Below, in pieces: positions 2,444 to 53,836 of a stretch of 60,355 bases of DNA. The stretch lies in contig JAUCBJ010000547.1 of NCBI GenBank assembly GCA_032718475.1, positions 1 to 60,355 on the forward strand, in the 5' to 3' direction. A program made the translations under genes and the position numbers. Position 1 is the stretch's first letter; each line of letters begins with the position of its first letter. This DNA comes from Nemertoderma westbladi. Taxonomy: Eukaryota > Animalia > Xenacoelomorpha. The notes beneath the pieces were generated by a model. It had not been told where the DNA came from and searched no databases. It saw only the letters and a program-made list of their open reading frames with translations.

Positions 2444-4299
2444 ATAAGTCTTATACTTATATTTATGTACCATTGATCCAACCCACTTATAATTCGTATA
2501 TTTAGTTAAATATAGCAGTTTGGGGGAATTAATGAAATATAAAGTCAGAATTCCTGTGTATTCCAAAATTCCACATCAACCAGATTTAATTAATCTGTTT
2601 GCTGCAGGGTGGACATATAAATTTATTAAATTATTACGGATTTAAACCGAGTTGCACCTTATCTTATTGTATTGTAATAATTGGCTATAAAAAAGATAAT
2701 ATATAATTATATAAAAATTAATTAAAGACAATTTTTCAGAAATCCATGGTACAAATGAAATATATTAGCAATAAAAAATATTATCTATATGACTAACAGT
2801 AAAATTGAAGTAAGCATGTCTAAGCTGAGTAATAAAGCAATGAACAGAACATATGATTTATCAGCTGATAGGTACTTTTATACCCATAAGATTCCCATGT
2901 CTAGCAGTTGATTGATAGGCTACCCATTACAGTCTGAACAGACTTATGGTTTATATTCTACTTCAATGCACACAGTAAATTATTATAGGAGTATTCCTTG
3001 CGCCTTTGGTCTGGCTAAACCCAGAGTACGACTAAGGCCATTGTTACGGGAGGTCGGGAGACACCCATCTTGATCCGATTCACCCTGAAACTTTCCCAAG
3101 CGCCGCGCCGAGCCCATAAATTGTTCGTCCAATCTAACCACTACTACTGGGTCACCTGTAACCACTACTGGGATCCCTATAACAAAGCAATTGAAGCCAA
3201 GAGGAGACGAATTTTGTGAAAGAGTTTTCGCTTACATTGAAATTGAAGTTGAGTGAAGGTCTAACTACCACATACACCATTTTATTATGTATGACGTCAC
3301 ATTGTTTCGGAGTTTGTATTGTAATTATCTCACGCGCTCCGCGAAGGCTATTGTGGAGCTAGCCACATTAACGTTATGTATGTACTTATTTGTATGACGT
3401 ATGTGCTGCGGTATACGTTCGTGGGGCCTTCGAGCAGCACGAGACGAAGTTAACCTGAGAAGCTGTAATCCTGGTTTGTTTGTTTGTACTTATATTACGC
3501 CGCCATGGGACTTAGCTTCTGTTGGTACGCAAAATTATTAATAAAGCCTTAATGTTCATTCTACCAATTAATGTCAATTCTACCAAATTTCAAATGAAAC
3601 CAGCCAGCTGTACCAGCCAGTCTGTCGGACCCCACTACGGCACACGCCACGCAGTCTGTCTGACTTTGCCCCTGATGGTTGGTTCTACAACCAACTTATA
3701 GCTACTTCTAGGATTTTTACAATTCTCCATCTAGTGGCCGACGGGGAACTATAGAAGTCTGTTTGTGTGTAGAATCTTGTAATCGGTTTAATTTCATCAA
3801 TGATTGAACGACTTATTTCGGTTTTCATCAAAAGTCTGAAACTTCCGGTGCCGACTGACAGACTGCCTGATTTTTGACCAAACGTCAGATTATTTCTAAA
3901 TGTAAGTATTATTGACGGATTACATACATACCAATTGGTTTAATTTCATCTAGGAATGACCGAGTTATTAGCGATCAAAATTTTACGACGACGACGACAG
4001 ACAACTTGTTAACGGTACATCTAAGCTAATACTTCGCTTACTTCGTGGCTCGTCTAACAAGCCTGTAACCTGCCTGGATATCATTATTTTTATTGTAATT
4101 GAATGAATACTGGATAGGCGGTATTGGATCAAAGCTCAAGGTCCGACAGTGGCCGCCAGAGTCGCATTTTTTCGGTCCTTCATCCCATTTGGACCTTCGT
4201 TCTGGGTGTGATGGGCCTTCGACGACTACCAAGGAATGTACTTTATCGAAAGAAGAGAAGGGTTGTAGGGGCAAAAGGGTACAAACATTAGTTGTTGGA

Positions 4300-7200
4300 C
4301 GCGGTCTTTAAGGTCTTGTTTAACCAGCACCATGTCGCCAACTGCGACATTCCTGTAGGTGTTATTCCACTTCCTTCTGGTCCGGAGGGTTATGAGGTAC
4401 TCTTGGGCCCAGATTCTCCACCAGTGCGCTGCCAGTGCTAGGGCCTTTTTCCAATTGGTATGTCTCGCGATATCGTTGGAATCTGGGAACGTTGCCTCTG
4501 GAAGAATGTTGGTTTTGGGTCTTCCAAGTAGATGGTTAGGTGTAAGAGGCTCCAGATCTGTGGGGTCATCATGGATAGGTATGATTGGCCAGTTGTTCAG
4601 GGTGGCCGTGATCTCGCAGAATGTAGTGCGAAGGGTGTCGTGGGTTACCCGGGTATCCCCTAATGCGACGCGCATGGATCGTTTCACCAAGTCGATGAGT
4701 TTCTCCCATACCCCGCTCGTATGGGATGCCAAGGGCGTTTGGAAGTGCCATTGTATATGGTGTTCCTTCCAGACTTGGGATGCAGTCTCTTCGGTGAACC
4801 ATCCCTCGATAGCTTCTCTGAGTTCCCTTTCTCCTCCCACGAAGTTTGTTCCATTATTGGAGTACATATGCCGGCATGATCCGTTGTTTGCCACGAACCG
4901 ACGCTGAGCGTTGATAAAGGCATGCTGCGTGAGGTTTACTACGAGGTCTAGGTAAATTGCCCTTGACCTAAGGCATGTGAAGATGGCTCCCCAGCATTTG
5001 ATGTTGGATCGTCGCTCGATGACTGTAAATGGTCCGAAACAGTCTACTCCGGTTACATAGAACGGCGGTGAATCGGACTGCAGCCGTTTAGCCGGTAGGT
5101 CGGCCATTCTTTGGGTGAGCGGTGGCGCTAGGTATCATCTGCAAGGGAAGCAACATTTTAAGACTTTACGGATCAGTGGCTGGATGTGGGTGATCCAATA
5201 TCTTTGCCGGATGTTAGCCATAATACAGTTCTGGCCCACGTGATGGTTTTCCTCGTGACACTGTTGGATTAATAGCTTGGCTAGTGTTGACGTTCCGGGC
5301 AGAAGTGCTGGGTATTTGACTTCATATTCGACCGGGGCATTTGCCATCCGGGTATTTAGTCGGATCAGTCCATCTTCCCCCATCATGGGTCTCAGCTGGT
5401 AGACTGGGCTGTCCGGTTTCAAGGTCTTGCCCGCACTGAGCTGTTGCCATTCATCGGAGAAACTTTCTTTCTGGACATATCTAACAATACATTTCTCTGC
5501 AATAATGAGTTCTCGTATACTTCGTTGAACTATCGGTGTATTATCCCTCCACCGCAGGAAGTTTGAAGAGTCATGACGTGGTGGATATGACGTCTCATCG
5601 AGGAGGTTCGCTCTATCAATAGGTGTAAGGACGCGGCTGGTTGCGTAGTGGTCGCAACATTATAGTGCCTGCCCGAGTCCTTTGCAGGCTCGGTCAGGCA
5701 ACTATAGATTTCCACGGTGGCGCTTCCATGGACTTTACGAATTTCCTTATCATCTTCTGAATATTTCCCGCTATCTAGTTCGGGATCGAATCGGGTGCTC
5801 CAGGTTAGTTGTGGCTGCTGTAAGAATTCCGGGCCTGTGAGCCAAAGTTTACTCTTACCGAGCTGTCGTGGGGTGGCGCCTCTGCTCGATAAGTCCGCCG
5901 GGTTTTCTTTCCTGTTTACGTGGTGCCACTGTTCTCGGCCGGTACACTGTTTTATTTCCGTGGCTCGGTTCGCTACGAACGTGGTGTGTCGCTGTGATGG
6001 TGATTGGAGGTAGTAAAGCACAATACTCGAATCAACCCAGAAATGCTGCGATTCGATGGGGATTCTTAAGTTCCGCATGATCATGCGGTTCTGCCTCACT
6101 GCCCAGACGGCGGCCTGCAGCTCGAGTCTCGGGATTGTTGCTACGAATTCCCCGGATACCGTCTTAGCCTTAGAGAATAAGAAGCTCGTATCACCGTTTC
6201 CATCCTGGCTTAATCTTCTTAGGAAGGTAACTACGCCGATTCCGGTATTCGATGCATCCGAGAAAGTATGGATGTGGATTCTATCCACATTTCTTTGATC
6301 AAATTCAATCCGGCCAATGTTACTGGGGATATTAAGTTTAATGGATCAAATATGGCGCTCTTTACAGATAAACATCCCGTCTTAGTCATGGGTTTGGGTA
6401 GGGGATTATATTTGAAGATGAACTGATCCAATTCTATGTCCCATTCGATACCGAGTACACGGTGATCCACACCCTCGGAATACATTTTGTTGTCATCTAG
6501 CCTGATTTCTTCTGGGAACCTTTCCATAAGTTCCTTATCATGGGATTATGAGAGGGAAACCGCCTCTCTGTAAACATTCCGCCATTCCCATAGCCAGCTG
6601 ATATGCCTCGTCGACATTGTTGGCACCAGCACATCCATCGTCTACGTAAAAACATCGTCGGATGGTCTCTATGACTGTCGGAGGGAACTCATTTTCGCAC
6701 ATAGTCGCTGTTTTCTTCAACATGTCGCTACATGCCACCAGCGAGTCCTTAGCGCCGAAGATTCTGACAATCATTCGCATTACGTCCACATCCTTCAAGG
6801 TGAGTTGATTTATCTCCTTTGGAGTTAATGTTTTATCTGTCCACAATATAAGTAGGCAATCTGAGTCTCTTGGTAGCGTTTGGACCTGGTGGAACATCGC
6901 TTTGATGTCGCATGTGAAGGCTATTTTGTTTTCTCTGAACCTGATCAATACGCCGATAAGTGTACTGTAGATGTTGGGTCCGGTGTAATGTTGGCTGTTC
7001 AAGGATTCGCCCTGATACATAGCCTCAGCATCATTTACTACCCGGATTTTACCGCCCTTCTGGGCTTCCACCACATAGTGGGTTGGGAGGTAATACGTCA
7101 GTTTAGTCCCCTGTAGTTCATTCCGGGGCACCATTTCCGGCAATCCATCTTCTAAATATCCTTTAATCACATTATTGTATTTCTCCTTTATCTCGGGTAG

Positions 7201-9490
7201 CTCGTTTAACTGGCGTAGGATACCCTTGAGCCTCCTAAGGGCAATGCTGGCATTATTTGCCATCGCTCTATCTGGGTCTTTCCAAAGCATGGGCGAACAC
7301 CAATGTCCGTCTTTGAACGTTGCCTGGTCGAGAACGTCAATACAATATTGATCTTCCTCGGACGGGTTCTCGTCCTTCTCAGCAAACTCTTGAGTCTCTA
7401 AGTTGAAATACTTTGTCATCTCATGCTGGGTTTTTTCGGTTTCCAGGAATAAATCCTCGTCCAGGTCGGTTGCTGAACAGTAACCCACAGATGTTGTGTT
7501 CTCTTTGATCTGGCATTTAGGGAGATATGTATATGTGTCGGTAGTCTCCTCTTTGATGCCGCAAAGTGTCCATCCCTTGATGGTGCGCTCCGCATAAAAA
7601 CCGTCATCCGGCTTTACAGATCGGGCGATGTCTCCGGTTGGTATATGTAATTCCGGTATATCGAGTCCGATTAATAGCGTAATTATGTTCACGTCCAACG
7701 GTGGGCATCATAGATCCACATCTTCCCGGTCTAACTGTATGATGGGTGCGTATTCAGATGATTGTCGGAACCGCACTCGGAGATGGTGTGTACCAGAGCG
7801 TTTTTTATCATCTGTTTGACCGTCTCATAACTCTTCATAACTCCTTCCATCCTGAGTTGTACCTCCCCGGATTCCACTTCTTTATGGTCGGTTATCGTCT
7901 GTATGGGCCGCTTGCAAGGTTCGTAGTCTAGGCCTAGTTGTTCGAGGAAATCCCGGTCGATGATGGTTCCGTCCAACCCATTGTCAAGGAACGCGAGTGT
8001 TGTTAAGGATTTTCAGACCCCTTGGATTCTTACTGGGATCACTTTGGCGAAGACCATATAACAGCGGTTTATTAAATTGACCGTAGCTGATATACTGGTC
8101 ACATATGATACATCGGCGGTGGTCTTCAACGGATTGGTTTCCCTCCGCTGAATCATCCGGGTACCCTTCCTTGGAGACGTGATTCGTTTCTCCTCTCTGT
8201 TTGGATTCGATCCGGAACGGTAGGGTGGTGAAATCGAAATTTGCAGGAATGTGGAGGAGTGTATGATGTCGTAGGTCATTACAGACCGCGCAGCACGACC
8301 TTTGGTCGTAATCCCGGACGTAGTGACCTGTAATGGCCATCGTACTCACCGGAGGGGGGCGGAATCTCGGTTTCGGAGTGGGTGCCCTGCTTCTAGAGTT
8401 GTTCTCTATTCCGTCTAACTTGGAGAGACTTTGTTTGGAGAACATCGAATCGTTCATGGCTTCGGAGATGTCATCTAGGAATGCCAACATTTCGAGGAAA
8501 CTAGGATCCCGCTCCGGGTGTCGGCGTCGGAGATCGACACATTTATACGCCCATTTGCTTTGCAACCATCCGGGGAACTTCCGGGCAATCTGTCGGAGGT
8601 TTAGGATGTTGTTTACCTGTTCCTCCTTATTTAATGGTTTTAAAGTGTAGTAAGCATCTTTCATTGAGTCTGAAAACTCTTGGATATTCTGTGGGTCCCC
8701 TAGGGATCCAGCGTCCTGTATCAGTTTTTCAAGCGTCTTATTGATTATAGTTCCGATGTTACCATATCTTTTATCTGGAGTTTTCCACGCGTCGTGGTAT
8801 GCTTTATGAGATCCTCCCTCGAAACATTTAACGATTCGGCATGGTTTGTCACCCAGGTATTGAGATAAATATACCAGTTTTTGCGCGTCGGTTATATCCG
8901 TTGATCCGATCTGAGCGAAGAACCGTTTCTTAAATCCAAGGTAATCGACGGGGTCTCCCTCGAAGGTGCGGATCTCCATCTTGGGCATAGCCAGGCGGTT
9001 CTCCAAGGCTCGGATGATGCCACCGTCGTCCGAACTGGAATGACTAGGAGGATTGTAATTACTAACACTCTCTCCCATACATGATGGATCGATGAGAGGT
9101 GGAGTTTTAATGATGACGCGGTTACGGATTTTTCGGTGTGGACGTGAACGGATTATTGGATCGAGGGGTGGCATCCCGTTCCGAGTCCTTTTCAGGCTCG
9201 TACTGGGGAATGCTCGGTGCCATAGGATTGGATGGGAAATAAGGTTCCTCATTCTTAAGCGTAACCGGTGGGGGATGGAATACCGTTGCTTGTGCCGATA
9301 ACGTAGACTGTATGGTTGGCGGGAACTCGGGTTTCGGAGGTTTTGCAGCCGGTGGCGTAAATGACTTTTCTAATTCCGGGACCGGGATTGGTTCATAGTC
9401 CTGTTCTATACCCCTTTCCCAGTCCTCGTATAGTTAGAGGTCCCGTTCTATGAGTGCGGCCCCGTAGTCTGCGAGTTTAGCAATGTCTGC
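4300..9490 (-). mobile_element. Decayed BEL/Pao LTR retrotransposon internal region (gag-PR-RT-RNaseH-IN), no LTR pair seen
   Basis: Seven broken minus-strand ORFs in BEL order: gag (FEGDPVDY..F, KLVYLSQYL), RT (YYLPTHYV, KIRVVND, CDIKAMFHQV, FYVDDG), Pao RNaseH (HTFSDAS, IPRLELQAA, FVANR, NPADLSSRG), integrase (TGVDCFGP, WGAIFTC, GTNFVG, LTPNHLL). Many stops and frameshifts; boundaries approximate. Confidence 0.9.
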
Positions 9491-10039
9491 ATTCTTTTTG
9501 TGAACAAGAATCGCAAATTTTGATTGCGTTTATAAGTTGATTCAACCATGGCTTTGTCTTAAATCAAATACCAGAGTTTCCTTGTAGTGGGTGCTGGGTA
9601 AGCATGGAGAGAGTTTGAAGAGTACTGTAGAATTCCCAACTTCCACCAGTTGAAGTTGGCCGCGTCTTATTCTCAATTTTGTTGCCATTATTCCCGACAC
9701 CATGGGGAAAACGCCGATGCTGGAGGCAGAATTTTCAGACCACGGGATTCTGGCCAGTCACCGGATATTGGGAGTGGAGAAGGAGTCCTTTCTGAGATGC
9801 AAGATTGCAATTGAGAAAACGTTGCATTGGTTGGATATAATCTTTTAATGAAACTTTCCTACAGTTGAATCTTGATTGAGAATAAGTTGGGCTTCCCCAC
9901 ACCAATATACACCAAATATTCACATTAATATACGATAATATGAATTCCTACAGTACATTAATTAATTACCCACTGTTCGCTTTAGATTTTAACCTAACTA
10001 ATGTTCCCCATTTTCCCTTGGTCCTAGTCCGTTGTGTGT

Positions 10040-11050
10040 CCCAACTGTTTCCGAGTCCTTATTCAGGCTCGTACTAACGCCGGTCGTGGAACCCACTCCA
10101 GGAAGGCAGTCCTCATCAAACCCTTCCTCCGTTTAGTCGGTCGATCCGTCGCAAGTCCCCGGTGCTGTCGGCAAGCTTTCTGAGTCCTTATTCAGGCTCG
10201 TAATAACTGCCGGTGACCAGGGACCGCTAAGGATCTGTCTGTCAGTTCCCGTCGCAAATCCCTGACACAATCAGCAGACTTTCCGAGTCCTTATTCAGGC
10301 TCGTAATAACTGCTGTTGGCCAGGGACCGCTAAGGGCAGTCCTTGTCCCTAGGCCTAGCGAGTTACCAAATCCACCTCTATAGGCAGCAGGAAGTTGGCT
10401 AGGCCTAATAGTATCAGGTAAACCTGAGTACTGCTTGATTTTGCCTCCCACCCTTGGCCCTTAAATATCTGATATGAGTCCCGTGCCCCGTAAGTCGCCC
10501 CAATATTCGCCCGTAAATCGCCCCCAGTCGATTGAATATACCCAAATTCCATGTTCCCACACCCAGTACTGATATTGGAATATTCATTATAAATAAATCC
10601 AAAAAATATTCAACTCGCGTTATGAAAAGTTGAAATACCGCGAACAGCATGCACAGCAATGATAGGCAGACTACCGTTGGTGTCCAACTCGACCAGCTTG
10701 TCCCACATATCACGAAAGTTTGCTGCTGCAGCCGAGCACTCCTTTGTATCCTAGCGGTTTATCGTATCGAATCCAAAATTCTCAAACAGCTCAGCCTTAG
10801 CAGCAAAAATGTCTTCTGGTACAAAGTTTGCCAGAACAAAATCTTCCGCAGCTGGAGCTGTAACGGACGAAATGCCCTGTAGCATTACAGCCAAGCAGGA
10901 ATTCACAATAACTTTATCAGGGCAACGGGGACGAAGTCCAACGGAGTTGCGCTTTTGAGAGCTACCGGTACTACCGGCTGTAGACTGAGACAGATCCACC
11001 TCCATAGCAGGGGGATCCCGAATGGCAACGGGCTGCTCGCCCACCACCAT
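10040..11050 (-). pseudogene. Relic LINE ORF1, paralogous to the ORF1 at 52408-53763
   Basis: VIVNSCLAVMLQG...EDIFAAKAELF..FG...INR*DT...SAAAANFRDMWDKLVELD..G.LPIIAV aligns with IVIVNACLSTVLQG...EEIFKAKTLLFGKLG..VNRRDT..SAAAANMRDIWEKMVDLDKEGKLPVIAV. In-frame stop near 10751. Three copies of ttccgagtccttattcaggctcgta at ~10049, ~10178, ~10281; left boundary uncertain. Confidence 0.75.
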
Positions 11051-11899: not shown

Positions 11900-12772
11900 T
11901 GAAATCTTTCCGTTTAATAATATTGTGTGTGATTGTGAATTTTTATTAACACTAAATGATTTTAGATTACCCGCTATCTTAAATATTGATGTATTATCCT
12001 CACAGGCAGTGAGTTTACTTAACAACTCTGATAAATTTCCAGATAACAATTTTGAACATGATGCCGATTCTGACCCAGATAATAAAATTTTTAACTCAAT
12101 ATTATCCCAAATCCAGTGTTCATACTGGGCTGATCTTTCAGAGTTGGCATCTACTTTTGAACATGACAAAAATAATGTTCAACTCCTGCTACAGGATTCT
12201 ACATCCTTGTACAAAATTTTTTTTGACTCTTTGGAAAATGTATTAAACATAATTAACAACCCTTTTAGAATTATTGGTTTAACATAAACGTGGCTAACCA
12301 GAAATAACAAAGATAACTTTTCGGTTAAAAATTACGAAGTAGAGAATAGCCTGAGACCTCCAGGACATGATGGTTATGGTGGATGCAGTCTACTCATAAA
12401 TGAAAATATTACTTATTCTCGGCGGAAGGACCTTGAGCAAGTTAAGAATCCTACAACTGCCCTTGAGGCAGTATTTGTTGAATACAAAAAACGTAAAGCA
12501 GAAAGAAATGTTATTGTCGGTTGCATTTACCACCCCCAAAATACAGACGTTTCAGAATTCTTTGATCGTTTTAAATTTTCATTTAATCAAATAAATAAAG
12601 AGGGCAAGACATGCTATCTCCTTGGCGATTTTAATTTAGACTTAATAAAAATTAATACAAACCCAAAAATTCTAGAATTCCTAGAAATTATAACACAAAA
12701 TTGTTTCTTTCCTCTGATCGATAGACCTACTCGTGTTACTGATACCACAGCTATGTGCATTGGTAATATACT
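11900..12772 (+). mobile_element. Degenerate CR1/L2-type LINE ORF2, piece 1 (APE endonuclease), interrupted by element A
   Basis: IIGLT*TWL, GYGG, GCIYHP, YLLGDFNLDL, PTRVT....IGNIL; continues in frame at 31467 once the TSD is removed. Confidence 0.85.
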
Positions 12773-13967
12773 TGTAAAAGCTTTTGCGGATATACTCAGT
12801 CCCCCTCGCCCGCAAGGTACCGTTATAGGTGTTTTAACGGACATAAAAGTCATTCTTCTATATGCATGCTTTGGCGGACATGGTAAGGCAAAAAACCCGC
12901 AATGCACCAAATACCCTGGCACAGCTTAGCCTTGATGATTCAGATTACGACATCTAACAGCTGGTTGCTGACATGGAAACGGCCATTGGACACATGGTTC
13001 TTTGTTTAGCTTAACAGCCAATCAGAGCGATTTTTTCTGTCGATGTGGAGATATTTGGCCGATCGTGCTAGGAGTGTTCAGTCTTACTGTTTTTCTTGAT
13101 ACTGTTGTGTTGTTTCTATCTAGGCCAGGAACACCGGCTCTAGAGTCAATTCGTTTCAGACTTTAGAAGAAACATTAGTAGGCTTAAGATTATAGAGCGT
13201 ATAACTGTTATCGGTCCAACTCAATCAGTGCAACACGGCACATACTTGTCATATCATATCTTAACCTACCGTCTTAATGCTTTTTACTGTTGTCATATTT
13301 TGTATCAGTTGGTTGAATATTATTTGGAGAACATTTATAAAGAACCCAAATTTCCCAATTTTCTTGATACACTACAGGTTAGAGAGACAGGTTACATATA
13401 GCGATTGCGACTTATATTATTGTGGTTTGTAGTGAATTTAATGCTATTTGATAAGCACTACATGAGTCAGTTGCTGTTCTCTTTATATATGATAAAATTC
13501 ATTGACGGTCGGCAAATTAGTGAGCAGTATTGTGTGTTACCGGTAATGTGCATGATTGTGGCTGATAACTAAGCATTTCCTAAAGAATGCGCCTCATACG
13601 TGAATCATAAGCCTTACCGACTTACCGTTGTGATTAGTATAAGTCATATCTCTGTTTACCTAGATAGAGCGCCACGTCCTAAAGGAACTGTTAGTATTTC
13701 CCGAAAGTGAATAATATTAGTCAGAAATTATTTATTAACGATCAATCGAATAATACAGTAAGCTTACACTGCAATAATAATCTAAGCCCTCAGAATCCAG
13801 TCTCCCGGGTATATCCAGCGGGTGAATGGACGCGCACTAGGCTGGCTTCTGCTAATGTTGTGTTTATTGGTATTAAATATTTGTCAATTTCTAAAGTCTA
13901 TTTATAAACCAAAAGACATATAAATTTTGGCAGGTTAAACTGCTAAAGGTCTTCAAAAGCGCGTACA
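12773..13967 (+). repeat. Element A 5' LTR (1195 bp)
   Basis: Direct repeat of 30267-31461 with about 5 substitutions seen by eye; imperfect 14-bp terminal inverted repeat (TGTAAAAGCTTTTG / CAAAAGCGCGTACA); CCAAT-like boxes near 12984 and 13017. Confidence 0.97.
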
Positions 13968-13978
13968 ATAACAGTTAT
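13968..13978 (+). promoter_or_regulatory. Element A putative self-primer binding site (ATAACAGTTAT)
   Basis: Abuts the LTR end, lacks the TGG of a tRNA PBS, and is the exact reverse complement of ATAACTGTTAT at 13201-13211 inside the LTR. Confidence 0.65.
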
Positions 13979-14032
13979 TGTCTTTATTGCAGTAAGCAAT
14001 AAAGTTGAAAGTACCAGTCGACCGGTAAACCT

Positions 14033-14160
14033 GAACCGGTACTTCTGTAGGTCAGTAGGCCCAACTGCCAGAACCGGTACTGCTGTAGGTCCGTAGGTCC
14101 AACTGCCAGAACCGGTACTTCTGTAAGTCCGTAGGCCCAACTGTCCTAACCGGTACTTCC
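14033..14160. repeat. 38-bp tandem repeat (~3.3 copies) in element A leader
   Basis: (g/t)aaccggtac starts at 14033, 14071, 14109 and 14147. Confidence 0.92.
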
Positions 14161-14379
14161 AGTATAAGTACATTAGTATTATTCGATTTTGATTATTGTA
14201 TACTGGTAGGTCTTAGTATTTAATCAGGGACGGCCGCTCTGGTTTTTTATTGAGATTTTACTTATTTCTGTCGGTTTTATTTACATGTAAGTTAATATTG
14301 AGCTGAAGACGTGTAAGTCTGCTCAGATTGTTCAGATAATTGTAGGCCGGACTGTTGTCGGATTGTTGTTGGGTTTGGA

Positions 14380-14910
14380 GAGATTACTGCGTGTGTAGAG
14401 TTTGTCCGATAGAGTGCCAGTTAGTAAGTTGGGGCAGCCATAGCTGTAAGGTCAATCCCCTCTTAAAGAATAAGTCGTACTACCGTGTTAGAACGCATAC
14501 TAACTAACCATTTTGGAATCTGCACATACTGTAGTTTATTTAGGCTTGACAGTATTCTGCCAACGTTTTGGCCTGTGTTTGTTTGTGTGGTCTGTTCAGG
14601 TACCGTAATAGTTATTACTCAGATATTTTGTAGGCTGGATTGTTGTCTAGCTATTATTAGGTCTGAAGAGATTGCTGCGTGTGTAGAGTTTGTCTGATAA
14701 AGTGCCAGTTAGTAAGTTGGGGCAGCCATAGCTGTAAGGTCAATCCCCTCTTAAAGAATAAGTCGTACTACCGTGTTAGAACGCATACTAACTAACCATT
14801 TCGGAATCTGCACATACTGTAGTTTATTTAGGCTTGGTGGTAGTCTGCCAGCGTTTGGTTTGTATTTTGTTTGAGTATTCTGTACGGGTAGCGTAATATT
14901 TATTATTCAG
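14380..14910. repeat. ~288-bp tandem duplication in element A leader
   Basis: agatt(a/g)ctgcgtgtgtagagtttgtc...ttaggcttg at 14381 and 14669; near-identical over ~165 bp, then diverging. Confidence 0.9.
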
Positions 14911-16203
14911 AGTTTATGCGATTATTCGCAACATTCATGTCCCCAAGTTTATTCCTACAGTAATTGTGTTTGTTACACATACCGTTATAGTTAAATTAAC
15001 CCCGGTACTACACGGGCTGCTTGGCGTAGGAAAAGACTGGTGACTTTGTGCTTCGGTCACTCCAGCAGATGCCGTGGTTCTTTTAACTGTTCAAGTATAT
15101 TTAACTACTGATTAATTGTTGTACCAGTACTTGTACCTAATTTAGGGTTTAGTGTACAGTGCTTTCCGAAGTAATTAGTGTGTAGGCAGTATATTTGTGT
15201 TGTAAAGTGGTTAATAGGCACGTTGGATTTGGTAGTCCGCGGTAATTAACTTCCAGGTAGGAACACTCCGTGATACATAACGTAGTACCTATAGCGATAC
15301 GGCTATAGGTCGTCAGGCGGTGGTATTTTCCTATCTGGACAGTGCAATATATTTACTACTACTTATTATTTTCAAATACCGTAGTACCCTGTCCGTTGTA
15401 ATAACCAGAATTCTAACCCTTTGTTAGGCTGGTTTGTAGACTTCCTGTAAAATTACCCTAAAAATTTCGTACGTAATATTTTTGTTGTGTTTAATTAGAG
15501 ATTTAATCTCACCCGTATCGTAAGTAATTTGTAGTATTAAGTAACTTAGGTAAATTAGAATTATCTGTTTTAGTGTCCCATAGGTAGCACTTCACTGAGA
15601 GCGCACAGCTTCTGTGTAGTGACTCCCCCAGAAATAATAACATTTATTTCAAATATTGACAAAACCCCTTTTAAACGGGTATATATCTATTATAAATCAA
15701 CTCAAACGATTTATAAATAGTAGGCCTGCCATACAACAACTAGGTCTCAATATCAGTTGGACTACTGCTTAAATAACGGTAACAAAGTAAGTTAAAGTAA
15801 CCAAGTAACCCTAAAATATTCAGAAATTCAATTATTCTAAAATAATTGACATACCGGTATTTACCATAGGCTTATTATATTTATTTCCATAAATTTGAGC
15901 TGAAATCATACCGGTATTCTGTAATTAATTCTAGTCCATAATTATATTTATAAATACTATAAGTGTAAGCTGCATACCGGGATTCACGATAGGCCTATTA
16001 TATATTTATATATATTTGTGCTAAAATTATATACCGGTACTCGGTGACAAACCTAGTTTACAATACTTCTATATATTATAAGTGTATACCGTATAAGTGT
16101 ATTACTGTAATAAATTAACGGTACTAGGCCAACAGTCATACTGAATTACTAGGCTTGCTTTAACTGAAACTATAGCAGTAGGCATCCAACCGTATAGCTA
16201 AAC

Positions 16204-19200
16204 ATGTCTGACACCCAGCAAAACCTGTCAGACAGTCTAATCGATACCACCATCTGTGACACAGATAGGAGCATGGAGCGATTAAGAAAGGAGTTCAGCT
16301 CACCTCCTACTGAAAGAAAGGTCATCCCTCCAGTAGTAGTATCAGACCCTAAGCTAATCCAACACCATAGGTCTATCATCGGCACTCGGCCCCAAGTCAA
16401 ACCGAACCAGGAAGCAGCTGTCCAACAGCAGCAACATCCTAGTCAAGAAACTTGTTCCCAGCGATCCGATAGCTCCAGTAGTGCGGATACTGCAGAGCTG
16501 ACCCCCGAACGCGGAGTGCAGATGGCGGCTACAGCCTACTCGGATCCCCTTCTCACCCTTCCTGCCGCAGTGCTAACTACTATATTGATCGCGGTGGAGG
16601 AACATCAAACCGATTGGGCGAGAAGTAAGCGAGCGACCCAAGATAGTTATGCGGGATACGCCAGGGAAGAATTGATGTCTATTGTCGAGTCACAATGGAA
16701 CTTTCCCGGACCCGGACTCCCGTTAGATTTGTCCGAAGCTACTTGGGAAGATATACACAGGATGGGAGTGGCTAAAGATACAATGGATCCAGCTGTTTGG
16801 AAGAGGTCGGCAGCAGGATATGTGCAGGGATTCTTCGGCTCCTTAGAGCGATTGGAAGAACAACTGTTTCGACAACCCCAAGGACCTCAAGAGCAGGAAG
16901 AGCTGCTTTATCAAGTACGTGAAAGAACCCTACGCATTAGACTAATCTTATCAGCCTTTGAGGAAACTTCCAAAAGAAGACAGGACACGTCGCTGCAGGT
17001 TGCTGTCAAAACTTGGTTCCAGCGGGTAGGTCTCAAAGTACAAGAAACGGCCCAGTGGAAATCCCAGCTGGCTGAGAGACTAACCTATGAAGAACCAACC
17101 GATGCCACCCTTTCTCAAGTGGAAAGCGAAGTGACCGCAGAGAGACCACGAACGAGAGACGCCATCGACATTTATCTGTCCGACTATCAGCGATTCCTAG
17201 GAGACGAAGAGTTGAGGAGACGGCTGTCTGGACTTTCCCCTAATAGTGAAGGAACCCAGCTTGTGTTGGACTCAATCGATGCTGAAATGTTAGCTGCAAA
17301 TCAAGCTGAATTTGATGAAAAACTTCGCCTCGCTAGAGCCCAGGAAGAAGAAGTAAAGAAAAGGCAGATAGAGGACCGAAAAGCAGCGGCAATCGCAGAA
17401 GCAGAAGCGGAAAGAAAGGAGGCAGCGGCAATGGCAGAAGCAGAAGCAGAAAGAAAGGCGGCAATCGCAGAAGCAGAAGCGGAAAGAAAGGAGGCAGCGG
17501 CAATGACAGAAGCAGAAGCACAAAGAAAGGCGGCAAAGGCAGTGGCAGAAGCAGAACGGAGAGCGTCTGAGCAGACTACCCAACTGGAGTTGGAAAATCT
17601 GCAAGAGACGCAAGACAACATAAATAAACAGTTAACTGCTAGTCGAATGCAGATGATGAGACGATCTACTCCAAAACGCCAGGGATACACATCATCGGAG
17701 GAAAGCGAAACCACCGATCCTGAAGGCGGAGGAAATAGATCTCGTCTAAGCAGGCGTAGAAAAACATCTCACCGCCACAAATTGCCTAATTTGCCCCCGG
17801 CGGTTAGAAGACAACTAACTAGCGCAGACTTAGGCAATACAGAACCCACAGAACAAATTATTCAGGTCAAAAGACTCCCTACAATAGTTGATGAGCCTGA
17901 AATAATTAGGCCTGTCGTTCCCAAAGTCACTTCTGTGCTAGAGACCCCTGTACTTCCAGAGCTTAACTCTAAATTCCCTTTACACAGTACTACACTGCCT
18001 GTACCCGGTAGAACAGTCCATGAGAATATCCCTGTCCTGGAAGCAGAGAGAGAAATCAAAGATTTGTCTCCCGTCGTCCAGCGTCGGCCCGCTACAATGT
18101 TGGCGACTCCCGCTTCGGCGGTCGAGTGGGTAGAGGAGGGAGGGCGGGGGATGAACCTCCTGCTCGGACAGATGCAGGAGACTGTCCACCAACTTAAGGG
18201 AACAGTAAGGGAAGGTAGGGCAGAATTGCAAGAAGTGCAGCAAAGTATCGCACTGGAACGCGACAAATTAGTCAATATACAAAAAGGCATACCAATACCC
18301 ACTGTAACATTGTGTCAACCTGTTAGGTCTGAAGTATTACATGCACAAGGTGTGGAGCCTACACGCATCTATACTGCTAGTGAAGTAGAAACTCCTATAG
18401 CAAACCCTATTAAGGGTGATTATAGACCTGTTATTAATGATATTCCCTATAGACCTGATAATGATCCGAGAAATTTATATACCGATAATTCGATATTAAA
18501 TAACACGATGGCCCAAGAAAGCTTTACGCGTCAGATGGCTAGAACAGAAGCCCGCCAAGCGGTCAAAGTGGGAGAGATCGTCAAATTCAATGGAGATGAG
18601 ATGAAATGGTTACCTTTCAACGAATATTACAAAGACAGCATACAGAACTCTGTACTATCTAACGGAGAGAAACTTAGGTTCCTCATCAAGTGCTTGGAAG
18701 GACCTCCCAAGTTAATGGCGTTAAAGTTCATTGGACATCCAGAAGGATTAAGACAAGTATGGGATACATTAAACATCAGGTATGGTAACAAGGATAACAT
18801 AGCTAAGTATTTGTATGCAAAATTAGTAGCCCCCCGAAACTTCCTTAGTAGCGGGATTATAGAGTTTTCCGATGAGATTCAGGAGATCTGTAGACAATTG
18901 GACTGGTTAGGTAAGTCTCATGAATATCAGAGTTCCATGGTTATTGGAGCAGTAGTCTCTACTTTACCAAAGGGTGGAGTATGTAAGCGCTGGGACAAGA
19001 AAGTGTTGTATATGAATGAGCAACAACGACGAAGCCCTACCATGGCTGATCTCATGTCCTTCTTAGATGGTGAAGTAAAACTACAACTCATCAAGCAGTC
19101 CAGAGAAAAAACATCGGAAAATAAGGTAAGTGAGAAACCCGCTTCTAGGAGAAGAGTAACACCAGTGTGTTACACTGATGACGGCGAAAGCCAAGCTTCT

Positions 19201-20430
19201 CAAGAAGAGGACAGCGGGAAAGACACTGATAGATCTTACTACGTTGAAAAAACCTCAAAAGACGTAAGTAAATACAAGGCTCGAAACAACGATAGGAGAG
19301 AACAGGTTGCCAAGACCCCTCCTCAGTCTCCTAACAGAATGCACCGAAGAAAGCCCGAAGAAAGAACGAGAGTGCATCAGGTTACCCAAGGTAAAGTGAG
19401 TAACATAAAACCTAACTGTGCGCTGTGCGACGGGACCCACTGTTTGAGTGCGTGTGCTTAATTTCTAAAGAAATCTCTTGTAGACAGACGTGCAGTCGTG
19501 TGGGATAAGCGGTTATGCTATAATTGCCTCAGACCAGGACACCAACGGCGAACCTGTTACTCCGACGTAAAGTGTGCAAAGTGTAGCGCGAAACATCACA
19601 TCTTGTTACACAGTGAGTTCGAACGAGACAACCCGAGTCAGGTAAGTGAGCCCGAACTACATGTCCAATTCAGTGATGTAAATGACACTGATCAAGAATC
19701 TGAGATGGAAGGATTCTATACTGACGAATTCTCCGATGCCAACGAATCCTGTTATCTAATCAATACCGCGGTGTATCGAGCACTTACTTATGAAAAGGAC
19801 ACCAACAATGAGTTTCCCCCAACTACTTTTGCCAGACAACCATCTTGGAAAGCTCCAACTTCCAACGTAGGAATCAGAGAATTTCCTGTAGTGCAGGTAA
19901 GAGTTCACGGTCCTAACAAAAGTTACATAGTGAACGCACTCGTTGACTCCGGCAGCACAGGAACATTCATCGATCAAGAACTAGCCGAAGATATCTTTGC
20001 TGGACAACCCAAATTCCGGACTAAATTGAATATGTCAGGAATTATGCAGGTTTGGAAATCTACCCTAACGGCAGATTACTATGTAGGTGTGTTGTCCACC
20101 CCCCAGGATAAATTAGGAGCACAAGGTATAAGGTCGGTAAAAATGGTGGCTATAAAGAACTTCGCTACTACTCAAGCAGACCTTTATAATTGGGACGAGG
20201 ATGAGAGCATCCAACATCTTAAGATACCTCGATTCCAGACAGATTATCCTGGAGTGCAAATACTCATCGGCCAAAACGCGCATGAGGCGCTCGAAACATT
20301 GGAGAAACGGCCTGCTCAACCACAGCCACTGCAAACCTATGCGGTAAGAACTAGAGTAGGTTGGTACTTTACTGGCCCTTCCGCAGGACTCTCGAAGAGA
20401 GAATGCCACAAGAACGAATATACCAATTAA
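16204..20430 (+). pseudogene. gag: Element A gag + aspartic protease (in-frame TAA at 19459-19461)
   Basis: Long coiled-coil N-terminus, BEL capsid-like region (KFNGD...W..F, EKLRFLIKCLEG), three zinc knuckles (CALCDGTHCLSAC, CYNCLRPGHQRRTC, CAKCSAKHHILLH), protease ALVDSGS; 19498-20430 is in frame with 16204. Confidence 0.9.
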
Positions 20431-23400
20431 ACGATTGGGAAGTGGAGAGCAGTGAGGTGGACGAACTAACTGAGGAAACACCATACTCCTCAGATAATGA
20501 CGACATCTACCAACTCTTCGATGAAGAGAACACAATCGACCTACTTACAGAAAACCAAACTTGGAAAAATCAGGTGAACCTATGTCAACTGATTCGCCCA
20601 TCGGAACCCATCGCTTACAATGACGAACTAAACGATGAGATAGAGCGCTACAACGCTAGAACTCGGGACGAACTAGCCGTACGATTCTTTACTCAAGAAC
20701 TGGTAGAGCCCAATTCATATGATAAGGCCCTATCGATAGAAGAAGAAAGAGCCAAGCAAATCCAGGAAACAACTACACGTTTTTTAAAGGACCAAGGTAG
20801 ATATGAAATCGGCCTACCATTTCGAAAACGAGAACCTAGATTTATAAATAACAGACCCTTGGCAGAGAAAAGAATCGCTCAATTACATCGACGCCTTACG
20901 GCTAATGCTTCAGCTAAAGAAATGTACCAAACTCAGCTGAAGAAATTTATAACAAAGGGATACGCGGAGCGAGTTCCGGAAGGAACACCAGTGACTGAGA
21001 GAACGTATTACTTAACACATCATTACGTTCCCAAACCCGGTAAACCCCATGAAGTACGAGTCGTATTCGATGGCTCCGCGCTATATATGGGCCAATCCCT
21101 CAATTCCGAGTTGTTACCAGGACCCAACTTACTCCAATCTTTGTTGGGAATACATTTAAGATTAAGACAATATTCCATCGCGTTCGTCTCCGATATAGAA
21201 GGAATGTTCTTACAAGTCAAGGCGCTGGATAGAGATAGAGACAGCCTGAGATTTCTGTGGTGGCCTGAAGGAGACCTCAATCAGAAACCGGTAGAGTACT
21301 GGATGACCATCCAGGCTTTTGGAATCATATCAAGCCCTTCCAACGCCTGCTCCGTGGTGCGAACCACTGCGAATGACAACCGAGACTCCTTCTCAAAAGA
21401 GGTGATAGACAACATCAAACGTAATATATACATGGACGACAATTTAAGGTCCCTTCCATCAGTAGAAGAAGCCATAGATGTCGCGAAAGGAACGGTAGAG
21501 TGTTTGAAAAGAGGTGGATTTCGACTGACGAAATTCACCAGCAATTCCCGTGAGTTTCTGGAAGCGATACGGGTAGAAGACCGAGGAGCGAAAGACCTAG
21601 ACTTAATAAAGGACGATCTTCCTGAAACCAAGACGCTTGGCTTGAAGTGGGACACTGAAAGAGACATCCTGTTTTTTCAGTTAAAACAGTGAGATAATCC
21701 AGTTCGGACCAAACGGATTTGTTTAAGTATCCTGAGCACTTATTTCGACCCATTGGGATTTATTAGCCCAGTTATATTGATTGCTCGGAGTTTAGTACAA
21801 CAAATGTGGCTTGAAAACCACTCATGGGACGATCCGCTTAAGGGAGAATTGTTAAAGAAATGGATGAAATGGGAAGATTCTCTACCTGCCATCGAGAACT
21901 TTATAATTTCCCGTGCATATTTTGGCCATGTTCTTCCTACGTATTCCTATCAACTCCATGTGTTTGGAGACGCCAGCGACATGGGAATAGGTATAGTAGC
22001 ATATCTGCGAGTCGAAACTCCGGATGGAATCAAAGTCGCCTTGGTTACCTCTAAGGCATTGATTAACAACAAGTTAAAGGTTCCTCGAGCGGAGTTAAAG
22101 GCGGCTTTATACGCTACCGCCATCGGCCGGAACGTAACAGAACAAATCGACTATCCGCTGGAGAAAACGGTTTATTGGACCGACGCTTTACTCGTGTTGG
22201 AGTATCTAACCAATGAAGTCTGTCAGTTCAGCGTTTTTGTTACTAACAGGGTAGCTATTATTCTTAGTCGCACAAAGATAGATCAATGGAGACATTGCCC
22301 TGGTACGATTAATCCAGCCGATATCGCCTCCCGGGGAGCAACTCCACAGGAACTGATAGATACTCCAGACTGGTTGGGTGGACCCGACTTCCTGAGCAAG
22401 GAAGAGGATGAATGGCCTCCTCACCTTACTATGGCGGAGATTAGACAAGCCAAGGGAGCGGAGACAGTCAAACCTAAAACCCGGGCGAGTAAATCGAAGT
22501 TATTTAAACCGACTATCGATCTATCTGTATTACCTACTTCCGGGAATGATGCTTCGGATCCACAATCCCTCAACACAAATAAGTCTGTTGTGGAAATTAG
22601 AGATAGAGACTGGAAATCTGGAATACCAGACATCTCGCAAGGAATCTCACCCCTGCTGCAGAGAGCAATGCATCACTACAGTTCCTGGAATCGGCTCTGT
22701 AAAGCCGTCACATATTTAAGGAGATGTTTTCATCATCACTACTCCCGGACGAAGACCATTAGTGATACCGCTCCATTGACATCTGCGCAAGTTCATGTTA
22801 TTAAAAATTTACCCAAATATAAAACATCCGACCGGTTTCTAAAGGAGAAAATTAGTCACCAGGAGCATGAAGAAACAAATAAGCAGATACTGAGACTCCT
22901 GCAATGCTATGAAGATTCCGATAAGTATTTCCTGTTGTTGAGAAATCCGCAGATGCGCTTAAGGGATCGATTCTCTAGCACAATGATAGATGGGTTAATA
23001 CGTGTTGGAGGAAGGCTCACCAATGCGCCATTATCCTTTGACACTAAATTCCCCATACTCATTAGAAATCTTGAAGTACAAATCAAGATGATTGTAGATG
23101 TTCACAGTAAACTTTATTATGCTGGTAGAGAACGAGTTCTTAGCGAAATCCGAACTCGCTATTATTTTGATAAACCCCGTAGAGCTCTGAACCAAGTTCT
23201 TAGGAACTGCATCCCCTGTAGGAAAGCATTCAGTAGGCCTTTAACACAGCGAGAGGCAGAATTACCTAGGGAACGAGTAAGCTTCTATGAACCACCTTTT
23301 ACTAATACTGGTGTAGATTTATTTGGCCCTATTGAAGTATATCGTGCTAGGACTATAGTCAAGAGATGGTGTGTCATCTTCGTATGCATGACTTGTAGAG

Positions 23401-24314
23401 CCATTCATCTCGATATGGTGAACGATCTGTCTACCAACAGCTTCGTCTTAAGTTTACGCCGACAGATCGCTCGCTTCGGGACGAGTAATACCATGAGATC
23501 GGATAAGGGAACGAACTTCATTGGTGCCAATAACGAAATACAGGCTTACGTGAAGGACTGGAACCAAAGACAGGTGGACGATCAGCTAAGGATAACAGCG
23601 TCTAGCTGGACCTTCAACGCCGCCGACGCACCTTGGTGGGGAGGAAGTTGGGAGAGATTAATTAGAAGTGTCAAGACCGCATTTCACTTTATAGTGCCAT
23701 GCCGCGCGTATCTCACCGACGAAATTTTGCGGACGTTAATGGAGGAAATAGCTGCCTATCTCAACGAGAGACCGCTTATGCCAGTCTCATAGAGTCCCGA
23801 TTCCCTGGAAGCGCTAACACCCGCGCACTTCCTACTGAAGAAACCTGTAGCCATGCTCCCACGATCGGAGATTGCCGACGGAGACGAATACTGCCGTGGA
23901 ACTTGGCAACTTATGCAGTTGCTATCCCGTCGTTTCGCTGACCATTTCGAGAAACATTATCTGCCCACGCTGCAACTTCGAACTAAGTGGTTTGCGCAGC
24001 AAGAAAACGTCAGCGCCGGAGATATGGTGCTTATTGTAGATCCAGACCTCCCACGTAAACGGTGGCAGACAGGTCGTATCATCGAGACTCACATCTCGGA
24101 TGATGGTTTAGTACGCTCGGTAGAACTCGTCGTCATGCGGCGTAACTTCAAGAAGCCAGGCATAATCTTTGAGACGCAACAACTCAATCGCCCAGTTGGT
24201 CGTTTATGTTTACTGGAAAGAGACAGAGAACTCTCCGGAAACTATGGAAGGCAAGACACTCTTCCCACGACCACCTCCCTAATTCCTCAAACATCTAGGG
24301 ACTCCCCAATGTGA
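20361..24314 (+). pseudogene. pol: Element A pol (RT, Pao RNase H, integrase) with in-frame stops at 21690 and 23790; frame differs from gag-PR
   Basis: YYLTHHYV, VRVVFDGS, SDIEGMFLQV, IYMDDNL, HVFGDAS, NPADIASRG, H/CxxC region, TGVDLFGP, SDKGTNF, WERLIRSVK; three ORFs in one frame separated by single stops. Confidence 0.92.
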
Positions 24315-25934
24315 TACGTCTGGAGTGGGTGTATGACTATATTATTTTATCTATTTTATTATATTTTATATGTGAACATTATTATGTACTTTATTATAAT
24401 CGTTTTTATTCAATTTTATTTAGTAGAAGGTTATTTTAGATTATTTGGTAGATTAGTGCAATATATTAGTGTTTATTACGTAATTACATATATATAATAT
24501 ATATTTAGTGTGACGGCGAGAAATAATTTTTTCTCTTTCCTTACTGTCCGTATCATATTATAAATACGTGACTACAGTAAGATGAAATGTCTGTACTTAT
24601 TAAAGTACAATAAAGCCACTACTATATTCAAGTATTATTGGTAGGCAGAGTATTAGGAATGCAAAGTTCAGATCCTCGTGTCTCGGCTAAACCAAGCTCT
24701 GGGTAGACCTTGGAAACGACTTGCCTCTTCACACTGACATTGCTTCGTGCGATATTGCTCTTCTACCTTATATTAAATAATACATATAGTAGCGTGATGT
24801 CCATATAACAGTAGCGTAAAATGCAAATAAATCTGTTAAACCTTTTGACCATCTGTAATTCTAGTCGATTAAGATATCGCGGCACCCACCGATATACTTG
24901 AAAGACAAATTCTAGAATCAGTGGTTAACGTCCCCGGACAAGTTCTGGAATAAATCGGTGCCCATCTTAAATATTAATTTAATATTTAGTAAAATCTGTA
25001 AAATTCAGATCCTTTAAATTTCTAGTCAATTAAGATATCGCAGCACTTACCGATACTCTTAAAAGACAATTGTCATAGAATTAAGGATCCTATGCCCCCA
25101 GACCTGCTCTGGAATCAAATTGTGTCAATTTTAACATCAAATAATAAAATTCACGGGAATAAATTTAAATTCATACTTTAAATGAATTTCATAAATTGTC
25201 GTTTTGTGCAATTTATAACATTCCCAAAATTCCATTAATTAATAGATCATGGGAGCGGAGATTCATCCTATTGAGTGTATTAGAGTGCGAGAATCTCCAA
25301 CATATAGTCAATAGCCGATAAAATTAATAAAATCATGCATAAAGAGGATATTGACAATTAAAGAATTACTATTAAATAGCATCCCAGATCTGTATGCATG
25401 AGAATTACCCTAATTCTACCGCTAGCATTCCATAATGTCACCATAGCAACACCCACGCTAGAATTAGAAGCAAGTTAAGAGAACAATAGAAAGCTTGTCC
25501 TATTGCATAGCATAGAGAATACATAGCACACTGTTAGTATCCAAGGATACACAGTAATAACGTGACATTCTGGAAGGCACTGACTAACGGACAAATGGCC
25601 TGTATGTGTACAATTGGTGACAGTTGTGTGGAATTTGTGCGTTTATAGGTGAATGTTACTGCTAAAGTATGTTTACAGTAGCTAGTCGCAATTGTAAAAG
25701 TAGCCCAACTCTCCTATAGAAAGAACCTAAGTGGATCCAAGCCTTTGGGACGGACAGTGGAGTGACTTGTGCCGGTTATCGTTGTCGTGCTGTTGCTACA
25801 TGTTGGCGTAAACACCGCGACGACGGTACATCGGCGCTGAGAATCCCACTGTCCGGGGGCAAAGAGAAGTAGGCAGCGACGCCCGCTCGCCTAAATATAA
25901 ACTCATTTGATATTAATAAACTCAGATAGCAGAT

Positions 25935-30258: not shown

Positions 30259-30266
30259 GGGAGCGG
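30259..30266 (+). promoter_or_regulatory. Element A polypurine tract (GGGAGCGG)
   Basis: Purine-rich run immediately before the 3' LTR TG. Confidence 0.75.
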
Positions 30267-31461
30267 TGTAAAAGCTTTTGCGGATATACTCAGTCCCCCT
30301 CGCCCGCAAGGTACCGTTATAGGTGTTTTAACGGACATAAAAGTCATTCTTCTATATGCATGCTTTGGCGGACATGGTAAGGCAAAAAACCCGCAATGCA
30401 CCAAATACCCTGGCACAGCTTAGCCTTGATGATTCAGATTACGACATCTAACAGCTGGTTGCTGACATGGAAACAGCCATTGGACACATGGTTCTTTGTT
30501 TAGCTTAACAGCCAATCAGAGCGATTTTTTCTGTCGATGTGGAGATATTTGGCCGATCGTGCTAGGAGTGTTCAGTCTTACTGTTTTTCTTGATACTGTT
30601 GTGTTGTTTCTATCTAGGCCAGGAACACCGGCTCTAGAGTCAATTCGTTTCAGAATTTAGAAGAAATATTAGTAGGCTTAAGATTATAGAGCGTATAACT
30701 GTTATCAGTCCAACTCAATCAGTGCAACACGGCACATACTTGTCATATCATATCTTAACCTACCGTCTTAATGCTTTTTACTGTTGTCATATTTTGTATC
30801 AGTTGGTTGAATATTATTTGGAGAACATTTATAAAGAACCCAAATTTCCCAATTTTCTTGATACACTACAGGTTAGAGAGACAGGTTACATATAGCGATT
30901 GCGACTTATATTATTGTGGTTTGTAGTGAATTTAATGCTATTTGATAAGCACTACATGAGTCAGTTGCTGTTCTCTTTATATATGATAAAATTCATTGAC
31001 GGTCGGCAAATTAGTGAGCAGTATTGTGTGTTACCGGTAATGTGCATGATTGTGGCTGATAACTAAGCATTTCCTAAAGAATGCGCCTCATACGTGAATC
31101 ATAAGCCTTACCGACTTACCGTTGTGATTAGTATAAGTCATATCTCTGTTTACCGAGATAGAGCGCCACGTCCTAAAGGAACTGTTAGTATTTCCCGAAA
31201 GTGAATAATATTAGTCAGAAATTATTTATTAACGATCAATCGAATAATACAGTAAGCTTACACTGCAATAATAATCTAAGCCCTCAGAATCCAGTCTCCC
31301 GGGTATATCCAGCGGGTGAATGGACGCGCACTAGGCTGGCTTCTGCTAATGTTGTGTTTATTGGTATTAAATATTTGTCAATTTCTAAAGTCTATTTATA
31401 AACCAAAAGACATATAAATTTTGGCAGGTTAAACTGCTAAAGGTCTTCAAAAGCGCGTACA
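30267..31461 (+). repeat. Element A 3' LTR (1195 bp)
   Basis: Matches the 5' LTR; followed by TSD ATACT. Confidence 0.97.
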
Positions 31462-38919: not shown

Positions 38920-39532
38920 ATCATAGTTTCGCTGTACTTTCCGATAATTCCTTTATACCAAATATAGTGTAGTCCTTGGCTCCAAATCTTTCGAATGGCG
39001 CTGCTGCCTCCTCTTGGATATCATATCCCCATCTCGGCTCTCCTTGTATCCCTTTCTCCATAATTAGAGGTGTAGTTACATAATCATTACTACTAGAGGG
39101 AATACAACAGAGTTTGTAGTTAGTTGTGAGGAGACGTGAGAGTTTCGTCTGCCCTTTGGGCTCGACAACGCTCTAACCTCCTACCCATAGCCTAAGATCT
39201 AGGGTTTCTTTAATGACACGCTGCTTCTTATCTAAAATTTTTTGCCGAAATAAAAACGAATTTGGGCTAAACTGGCTGTGAGTCTAAAATACTCACTTTT
39301 TGATCCCAAACTATTATCAGAAAATAAGCAATCAAGAATTAGTAATAAATATAGGGGAGTCTATTTATTGACGTAACTTATTGAAACAAGACCGTGTAAA
39401 ATTTAATTAATATTTTAAGAAAGGCTCGCAAGTCTTCCTCTCTTGTTTCTCTAATTTTAAGTTCCACCCGACTGTACCCTGAAATCTATTCACTGGAGAA
39501 AATTTTAAAATTTTCAAATCCAAATGGATTGT

Positions 39533-52289: not shown

Positions 52290-52407
52290 ATGCTGCCATG
52301 CATTACACCATGCTGCCATGTCCCAGAATAGTGTCTTAAATCAGTGAAAGAGTAACTAACTAACATAACTATCTTGTATTTCTAATCTTTATACCGCACA
52401 AACTATT

Positions 52408-53763: not shown

Positions 53764-53836
53764 CTCTTTGAATTCTTACTAACTTGTTAATACGGCAACA
53801 CCCAGACAAGCAGGAGCCGCTTCTGATATTACTGTT

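Follow-up and report, generated by a model that had tools for sequence, protein, structure and literature searches.

The stretch of DNA analysed here (the window) comprises 60,355 nucleotides, positions 1 to 60,355 of contig JAUCBJ010000547.1 from Nemertoderma westbladi (GenBank assembly GCA_032718475.1). It contains two large retrotransposons with paired long terminal repeats (LTRs), elements A and B, and parts of further elements. Element A, on the forward strand, has a total length of 18.7 kb. Comparison of the window with itself placed its 5′ LTR at 12773–13967 and its 3′ LTR at 30267–31461; both are 1195 bp long with TG...CA ends, they differ at 5 positions, and the 5-bp target duplication ATACT is found at 12768–12772 and 31462–31466. 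The interior holds, on the same strand, a gag-pol region (16198–24314) of five open stretches broken by stops and one frame change, a third open reading frame, ORF3 (25920–30188, 1422 codons from stop to stop), with a putative DnaQ/RNase D-like domain and zinc knuckles, and a polypurine tract (30259–30266). The Pfam domains encoded by the internal ORFs, namely DUF1759, Peptidase_A17 (the Pao peptidase), Integrase_H2C2 and DUF5641, identify element A as BEL/Pao; its Pao-type gag and pol domains lie between the LTRs in the order PR-RT-RH-IN, and the LTRs, target duplication and polypurine tract likewise agree with this assignment. The chromodomain, which would mark a Ty3/gypsy chromovirus, is absent from element A, where the Pfam search found Pao families instead. 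The insertion splits an endonuclease ORF at 12773, with LINE pieces (endonuclease and RT domains) at 12288–12929, and the leader contains short repeats at 14006–14160.

The primer-binding site of element A appears to be ATAACAGTTAT (13968–13978, + strand), which contains no TGG and is not tRNA-like, and which adjoins the 5′ LTR with zero spacing because the LTR ends at 13967. This 11-mer occurs once in the window, at 13968, and only two positions, 13201 and 30695, carry its reverse complement. The first of these, 13201–13211 (+ strand, LTR position 429–439, ending AT|C), is the predicted self-primer, and the second (30695–30705) is its copy in the 3′ LTR; the perfect match between site and LTR is exactly 11 nt. 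The complementarity at zero spacing claimed in a first-pass annotation of this DNA is therefore real. When the chance of an 11-nt match in the 1195-bp LTR was assessed by dinucleotide shuffling, 15 of 20,000 shuffled LTRs reached at least 11 nt at offset 0, rising to 38 with offsets 0–3 and to 99 with either orientation, and only four of 1,477 AT-rich 11-mers from the interior of the element have an exact complement in the LTR. The same annotation had rightly cautioned that the 11-mer is AT-rich and quasi-palindromic; nonetheless, the one central base that distinguishes a complement from a direct repeat fits the complement. Two hairpins said to overlap or follow the site both exist, but are of unequal strength: the 9-bp hairpin directly after the site (13982–14004, + strand), which carries AATAAA within its 3′ arm, has a predicted energy of −9.2 kcal/mol and is equalled in stability by 1 of 500 shuffles, whereas the one at 13965–13981 is weak (−2.6 kcal/mol).

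Element B, on the reverse strand, repeats this geometry (11 nt, zero spacing) with a different sequence, as had also been claimed. Its 5′ LTR (49874–51782, 1909 bp) is followed directly by a primer-binding site at 49863–49873, again with no TGG, and the predicted self-primer lies at 50902–50912, ends AC|G and has a second copy at 33660–33670 in the 3′ LTR (32631–34540). Dinucleotide shuffles of element B reached at least 11 nt in 8 of 20,000 cases at offset 0, in 36 with offsets 0–3 and in 65 with either orientation. Directly after the site there is an 11-bp hairpin with a C(UACG)G loop (49837–49862; −10.3 kcal/mol; 7 of 500 shuffles as stable). No spliced extension of the unsplit primer was found in element A or in element B. 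Element B also carries an ORF3 (35335–38952, − strand, 1205 codons from stop to stop), 33% identical to that of element A over the aligned part.

Several other features of the window may be recorded here. The LTR termini of element B are TA...TA rather than TG...CA, and its 5-bp target duplication, AGTTG, is clean on both sides. A perfect 593-bp tandem duplication (49201–50390) takes in the end of its 5′ LTR, the primer site and roughly 80 nt of the leader, which gives the element two primer sites (49863–49873 and 49270–49280); this duplication may be genuine or an assembly artefact. The stretch 51571–51657 (− strand), repeated in the 3′ LTR of element B, is tRNA-like, with motifs resembling the A-box and B-box consensus followed by a T run. 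It is possibly a captured SINE head, although neither ARAGORN nor Rfam makes a call on it; nothing of relevance was detected by these two programs, an Rfam match to U12 (E 0.22) being dismissed as chance. Element B lies next to or inside LINE pieces with endonuclease and RT domains (52369–56887), and tandem repeats are present in its gag (84-nt units, 46184–46681) and after the LINE (50–55-nt units, 57066–57591). A third BEL element, element C, is truncated (approximately 4226–10751, − strand) and has no paired LTR within the window; four candidate sites that a loose scan proposed for it were dropped as weak donors or plain matches.

Relatives were collected by a metagenome scan with an RT alignment of the three BEL elements of the window, and the best 80 of 437 confirmed loci were considered. 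A direct repeat was present in 28 of them, and these were looked at closely, the remaining 52 having no repeat or only a contig-end overlap; 9 of the 28 extended past the contig end and 1 lacked a clear end, which left 18 loci belonging to 15 RT families. The sample is confined to loci sharing peptide motifs with elements A, B and C, none of them a tRNA-primed control; RT searches of viral and prokaryotic sequence collections gave no matches. None of the 18 usable loci has TGG directly after the LTR, nor do elements A and B; as a test of tRNA type this covers tRNA 3′ ends and not internal tRNA fragments. The 18-nt tRNA 3′-end site described by the ICTV is accordingly found neither in element A, nor in element B, nor in the 18 relatives. 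In contrast, all 15 testable families have a self-complementary, non-tRNA site, whose letters are either their own or shared within a clade; the self-priming lineage proposed in the first-pass annotation is thereby supported.

In these relatives the complement of the site is split in the LTR by a predicted splice junction. At offset 0, only three loci match at least 11 nt of their own LTR. With offsets of 0–5, 17 of the 18 loci match 10–15 nt across a GT-AG junction, no match being equalled in more than 9 of 200 shuffles, and the 18th (L057) shows a 13-nt match once the offset is widened to 6; these figures are to be read with the facts that offsets were widened after the data had been seen and that LTR ends were placed by eye at CA. 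The 15 families (L001–L071), all without ORF3, thus have a predicted GT-AG intron of 72–201 nt in the LTR, the predicted junction of which is complementary to a primer site 0–6 nt past the LTR end, with exon 1 contributing 4–9 nt of the primer. Two controls are independent of the choices of offset and LTR end. The junction search demanded only GT and AG, and the donors were GTAAG or GTACG in 15 of 15 families versus 21 of 193 mismatched PBS/LTR pairs; moreover, only 13 of 272 mismatched pairs reached 11 nt, five of which come from a single clade whose members share their primer. A further regularity, noticed post hoc, is the primer end AY|C/G, present in 14 of the 15 families as well as in element A (AT|C) and element B (AC|G), against a background of 0.046 for each.

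A poly(A)-like signal was found downstream of the primer in 11 of the 12 relatives scanned, which places the primer in R, and 2 of the 12 have a TATA some 140 nt ahead of the donor. Taken together, the short share of exon 1, the upstream TATA and the downstream poly(A)-like signal favour a primer that sits in R and is cut from a longer leader. The shared primer-end motif suggests, at the level of sequence, that elements A and B belong with the spliced-primer families. They differ from these relatives in that their primer is unsplit, and in the hairpin after the site: a hairpin as stable was obtained in at least 37 of 500 shuffles for all 15 relatives, compared with 1 and 7 for elements A and B. 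The best RT identity of the two elements to the relatives is 46%. In a quick tree, built without named clade references, both have long branches and neither falls within the spliced group; the tree assigns them to none of the sub-clades (Sinbad, Sparrow, Surcouf, Suzu, etc.).

The ORF3 exonuclease had been proposed to help in maturation of the primer 3′ end, and so to be linked with self-priming. The ORF3 proteins of elements A and B have 15 distant relatives. No Pfam exonuclease match was obtained for either protein, and PF01612 matches 3 of the 15 relatives, below the cut-off. While a single-sequence model of ORF3 reached a pLDDT of only 31, the model of the relative P0122 (pLDDT 74) matches Egalitarian, EXD2, NrnC and Nibbler, with E ~1e-4 for EXD2, Egalitarian and NrnC and TM ~0.5 to the targets, which points to an RNase D/EXD-like fold for the family. 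The D-x-E motif is present in ORF3; the third motif is uncertain, being apparently E in elements A and B and D in several relatives. One database protein, P0125, has a BEL-type gag (DUF1759) and protease fused to an ORF3-like exonuclease and zinc-knuckle region, which ties the ORF3 family to BEL elements elsewhere. Among the best 80 of the 437 relatives of the elements, an ORF3 profile found no carrier, with two weak matches to the zinc-knuckle part only. In all 18 tested loci the gap between integrase and 3′ LTR is at most 285 nt, and the 18 relatives are therefore without ORF3. A viral scan found no ORF3-bearing relatives and a word-indexed ORF3 search found nothing. Since ORF3-less families possess self-sites, ORF3 is not needed for a self-site: it is an accessory gene, and self-priming does not require it. 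As a requirement, the proposed link is not supported; a role of ORF3 confined to the unsplit form is conceivable, on the strength of two cases, elements A and B.

The first-pass annotation had also predicted that the element A transcript starts at 13201. This is doubtful. There is no TATA within 40 nt upstream of the primer in element A or in element B. A motif scan located the possible promoter signs of element A at 12985–13082 (+ strand; CCAAT at 12985 and 13018, initiator-like TCAGT at 13078), 120–220 nt upstream of the primer, and in element B CCAAT-like boxes and a TATA are about 450 nt or more upstream. Poly(A) signals are ATTAAA at LTR position 1100 in element A and AATAAA at LTR position 1130 in element B; a further AATAAA of element B, at LTR position 554, lies between the TATA and the primer, and its position upstream of the primer conflicts with a start at the TATA. 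The duplex of element A, at −10.1 kcal/mol, is a weak one that has to bridge about 760 nt in competition with a local hairpin; in the leader folds predicted from four starts, its 11 pairs have a probability of at most 0.03. In element B the pairing has a probability of 0.92 only with an RNA starting at the primer; a further 110 nt reduces it to 0.0, a result in favour of a primer at the 5′ end. With RNA starting at the primer, forcing the duplex costs 1.9 kcal/mol in element A and 0.9 kcal/mol in element B. In folds computed with constraints, the stretch that follows the site pairs within itself and the end of the LTR pairs with sequence further inside the LTR, but such long-range folds are unreliable. 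In the test of pairing probability, 6 of 14 relatives also scored 0.05 or less.

Contigs derived from the public DNA runs of three studies were aligned to the element A site, in a narrow alignment ending at 13250 and in a wide one. Family A appears very abundant and diverse in these runs (12600–16300), with 38,050 contigs in X1 and most copies 90–99% alike. In all three studies, its copies agree up to 13212 and diverge directly after. In the narrow alignment, 20 of the 27 contig pieces listed end at exactly 13212, with loose ends beyond that differ from each other, and the summed depth in X1 falls from 86,191 at 13209–13211 to 2,930 at 13221–13223, part of this fall being an edge effect because the alignment stops at 13250. 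In the wide alignment, which has no edge there, the depth is 22,366 at 13213 versus bin means of 157,470–227,552, and 4 of the 15 joints listed leave at 13212 and rejoin 33–44 nt later (13246–13257). A variable patch (13213–13257, + strand) therefore begins after the primer plus one base. The end of likeness coincides with the cut and strand jump predicted below, an agreement that is indirect, and the patch may simply be unconstrained sequence. The rows listed for the narrow alignment contain six indels at 13186–13197 and none in 13201–13212; because they contain no substitutions at all, they are no proof of conservation of the 11-mer. Among the 40 variants listed of 648 in the wide alignment, none falls in either 11-mer, and among the variants listed there is no two-sided change of the duplex within family A.

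Because the complementarity is found in elements A and B and in 15 families, and no tRNA site accompanies it, the group likely primes with its own RNA. For element A, self-priming in one form or another appears likely from sequence comparison. The form that we favour, by a modest degree of confidence, is an internal primer. The transcript would start upstream of 13201, the 11-mer 13201–13211 would pair with the site at 13968–13978, and the RNA would be cut at 13211/13212, probably by the RNase H of the element, by analogy with Tf1. The cut would provide the 3′ end; minus-strand DNA would run back to the cut and then jump to the same R sequence at the 3′ end of the RNA. Copying of the primer would re-make the site at each cycle, and so keep primer and site in step. 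In the relatives the primer would be assembled across the predicted intron, and the unsplit primer of elements A and B is most simply accounted for by loss of the intron via spliced RNA. We give even chances to a broader scenario in which a large animal branch of BEL/Pao has left tRNA priming and takes its primer from inside its own RNA, mostly assembled by splicing, while elements A and B are derived giants that have lost the intron and gained the exonuclease-like ORF3 and the hairpin, the patch after 13212 reflecting errors of the cut and jump.

Three other explanations have to be weighed. If the geometry were exactly that of Tf1, the transcript would start at 13201 and the 11-mer would be its capped 5′ end, cut off to act as primer. 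The identical length and zero spacing in elements A and B speak for such an arrangement, as do the low cost of the forced duplex in both and the strong pairing of element B; however, neither primer has a TATA in the preceding 40 nt, the promoter signs are far upstream, the relatives would need a first exon of 4–9 nt, and pairing between the two ends of a fold is in part produced by the folding model itself. We therefore regard it as unlikely. A mere chance match, or a match with a role in RNA folding only, with priming by a tRNA fragment or another host RNA, would find some comfort in the AT-rich, quasi-palindromic character of the element A 11-mer, in the 99 of 20,000 shuffles under the loosest rule, and in the ICTV description of the BEL/Pao family as tRNA-primed (PMC8742986), but the same accident would have had to happen again in element B and in 15 families whose splice sites are strong and whose primers end in a common motif, which makes it quite improbable.

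The primer might instead be a trimmed 3′ end, the ORF3 exonuclease shortening either the RNA 3′ end (the 30695–30705 copy) or a short LTR transcript until a duplex is reached. Only elements A and B were seen to carry ORF3, and they also have the only unsplit primers and the only significant hairpins after the site; the RNase D/EXD-like fold predicted for the ORF3 family would suit such an activity, and rotifer LTR elements have DEDDy ORF3s for which 3′-end processing has been proposed (PMC5408684). Yet the association has n = 2, self-sites without ORF3 occur in 15 families, the protein is a putative nuclease whose third motif apparently differs (E rather than D) from that of several relatives, and the fold match was made on the relative P0122 with TM ~0.5. 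This is, in our judgement, the least probable of the explanations considered. The internal primer makes precise predictions, and the exact positions for testing it are given here: the cut at 13211/13212 and the junctions in the relatives, for whose spliced families elements A and B form a natural unsplit comparison.

Self-priming is established for Tf1 and has been proposed for the Tf1/sushi group (PMC4600332, PMC10085805), the RNase H cut of Tf1 being named in the title of a reference in the former. It has also been predicted for Tcn1 and TAR elements (PMC6317226). For BEL/Pao, the ICTV describes an 18-nt site for tRNA-Arg or tRNA-Gly, a genome of 4.2–10 kb and a replication that is poorly understood (PMC8742986); the terms ‘PBS’ and ‘tRNA’ are absent from the main text of the Sinbad paper (PMC554778), of a BEL/Pao survey (PMC3118150) and of PMC6238403. 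Full-text literature searches, with subscription journals, Repbase notes and supplements outside their scope, retrieved no report of self-priming in BEL/Pao. A self-site would explain why annotation based on tRNAs would miss the primer site in such elements.

The likeness to Tf1, Tf2, Tj1, Tosmo and the Tf1/sushi group is close: instead of a tRNA site, a short stretch next to the 5′ LTR complements the element's own LTR RNA, and a cut is needed to free the primer (PMC4600332, PMC10085805). However, Tf1/sushi elements are Ty3/gypsy chromoviruses, whereas elements A and B are BEL/Pao; the primer, probably internal, is about 760 nt (element A) and 1,030 nt (element B) from the site; the site is followed by a local hairpin in place of the two duplexes that flank it in the ‘pretzel’, which were not recovered as such; and the relatives of A and B build the primer across a predicted intron. 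The TAR (Houba, Osr-1) Ty1/copia and Tcn1 elements of plants are comparable as cases of self-priming predicted from sequence outside the Tf1 founders, but they differ in superfamily and host kingdom, and no spliced primer is described for them in the available part of PMC6317226. The LTR retrotransposons Juno and Vesta of bdelloid rotifers likewise have a third ORF, which in their case specifies a DEDDy exonuclease of RNase D-like type (PMC5408684) and with which the putative exonuclease of element A may be compared; the ORF3s of the present elements, however, have 1200–1400 codons and a zinc-knuckle cluster, and the words ‘priming’ and ‘PBS’ are absent from the main text of that paper. The Pao peptidase, DUF1759 gag, PR-RT-RH-IN order, LTRs, polypurine tract and animal host are all those of Belpaoviridae in the sense of the ICTV, whereas the 18.7-kb length of element A, its 11-nt self-site and the exonuclease-like third ORF in place of env are not (PMC8742986).

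Element A probably works like Tf1 without membership of the Tf1/sushi group: by its proteins it is BEL/Pao, and it lacks the tRNA site described for that family. If true, self-priming in BEL/Pao would mean that the Tf1 solution arose independently in a third superfamily of LTR elements, and its spliced form in the relatives would couple the initiation of reverse transcription to the splicing machinery of the host. What elements A and B represent is likely a variant of the Tf1-type mechanism that is new for BEL/Pao, a family whose ICTV description has no room for priming by an element's own RNA.
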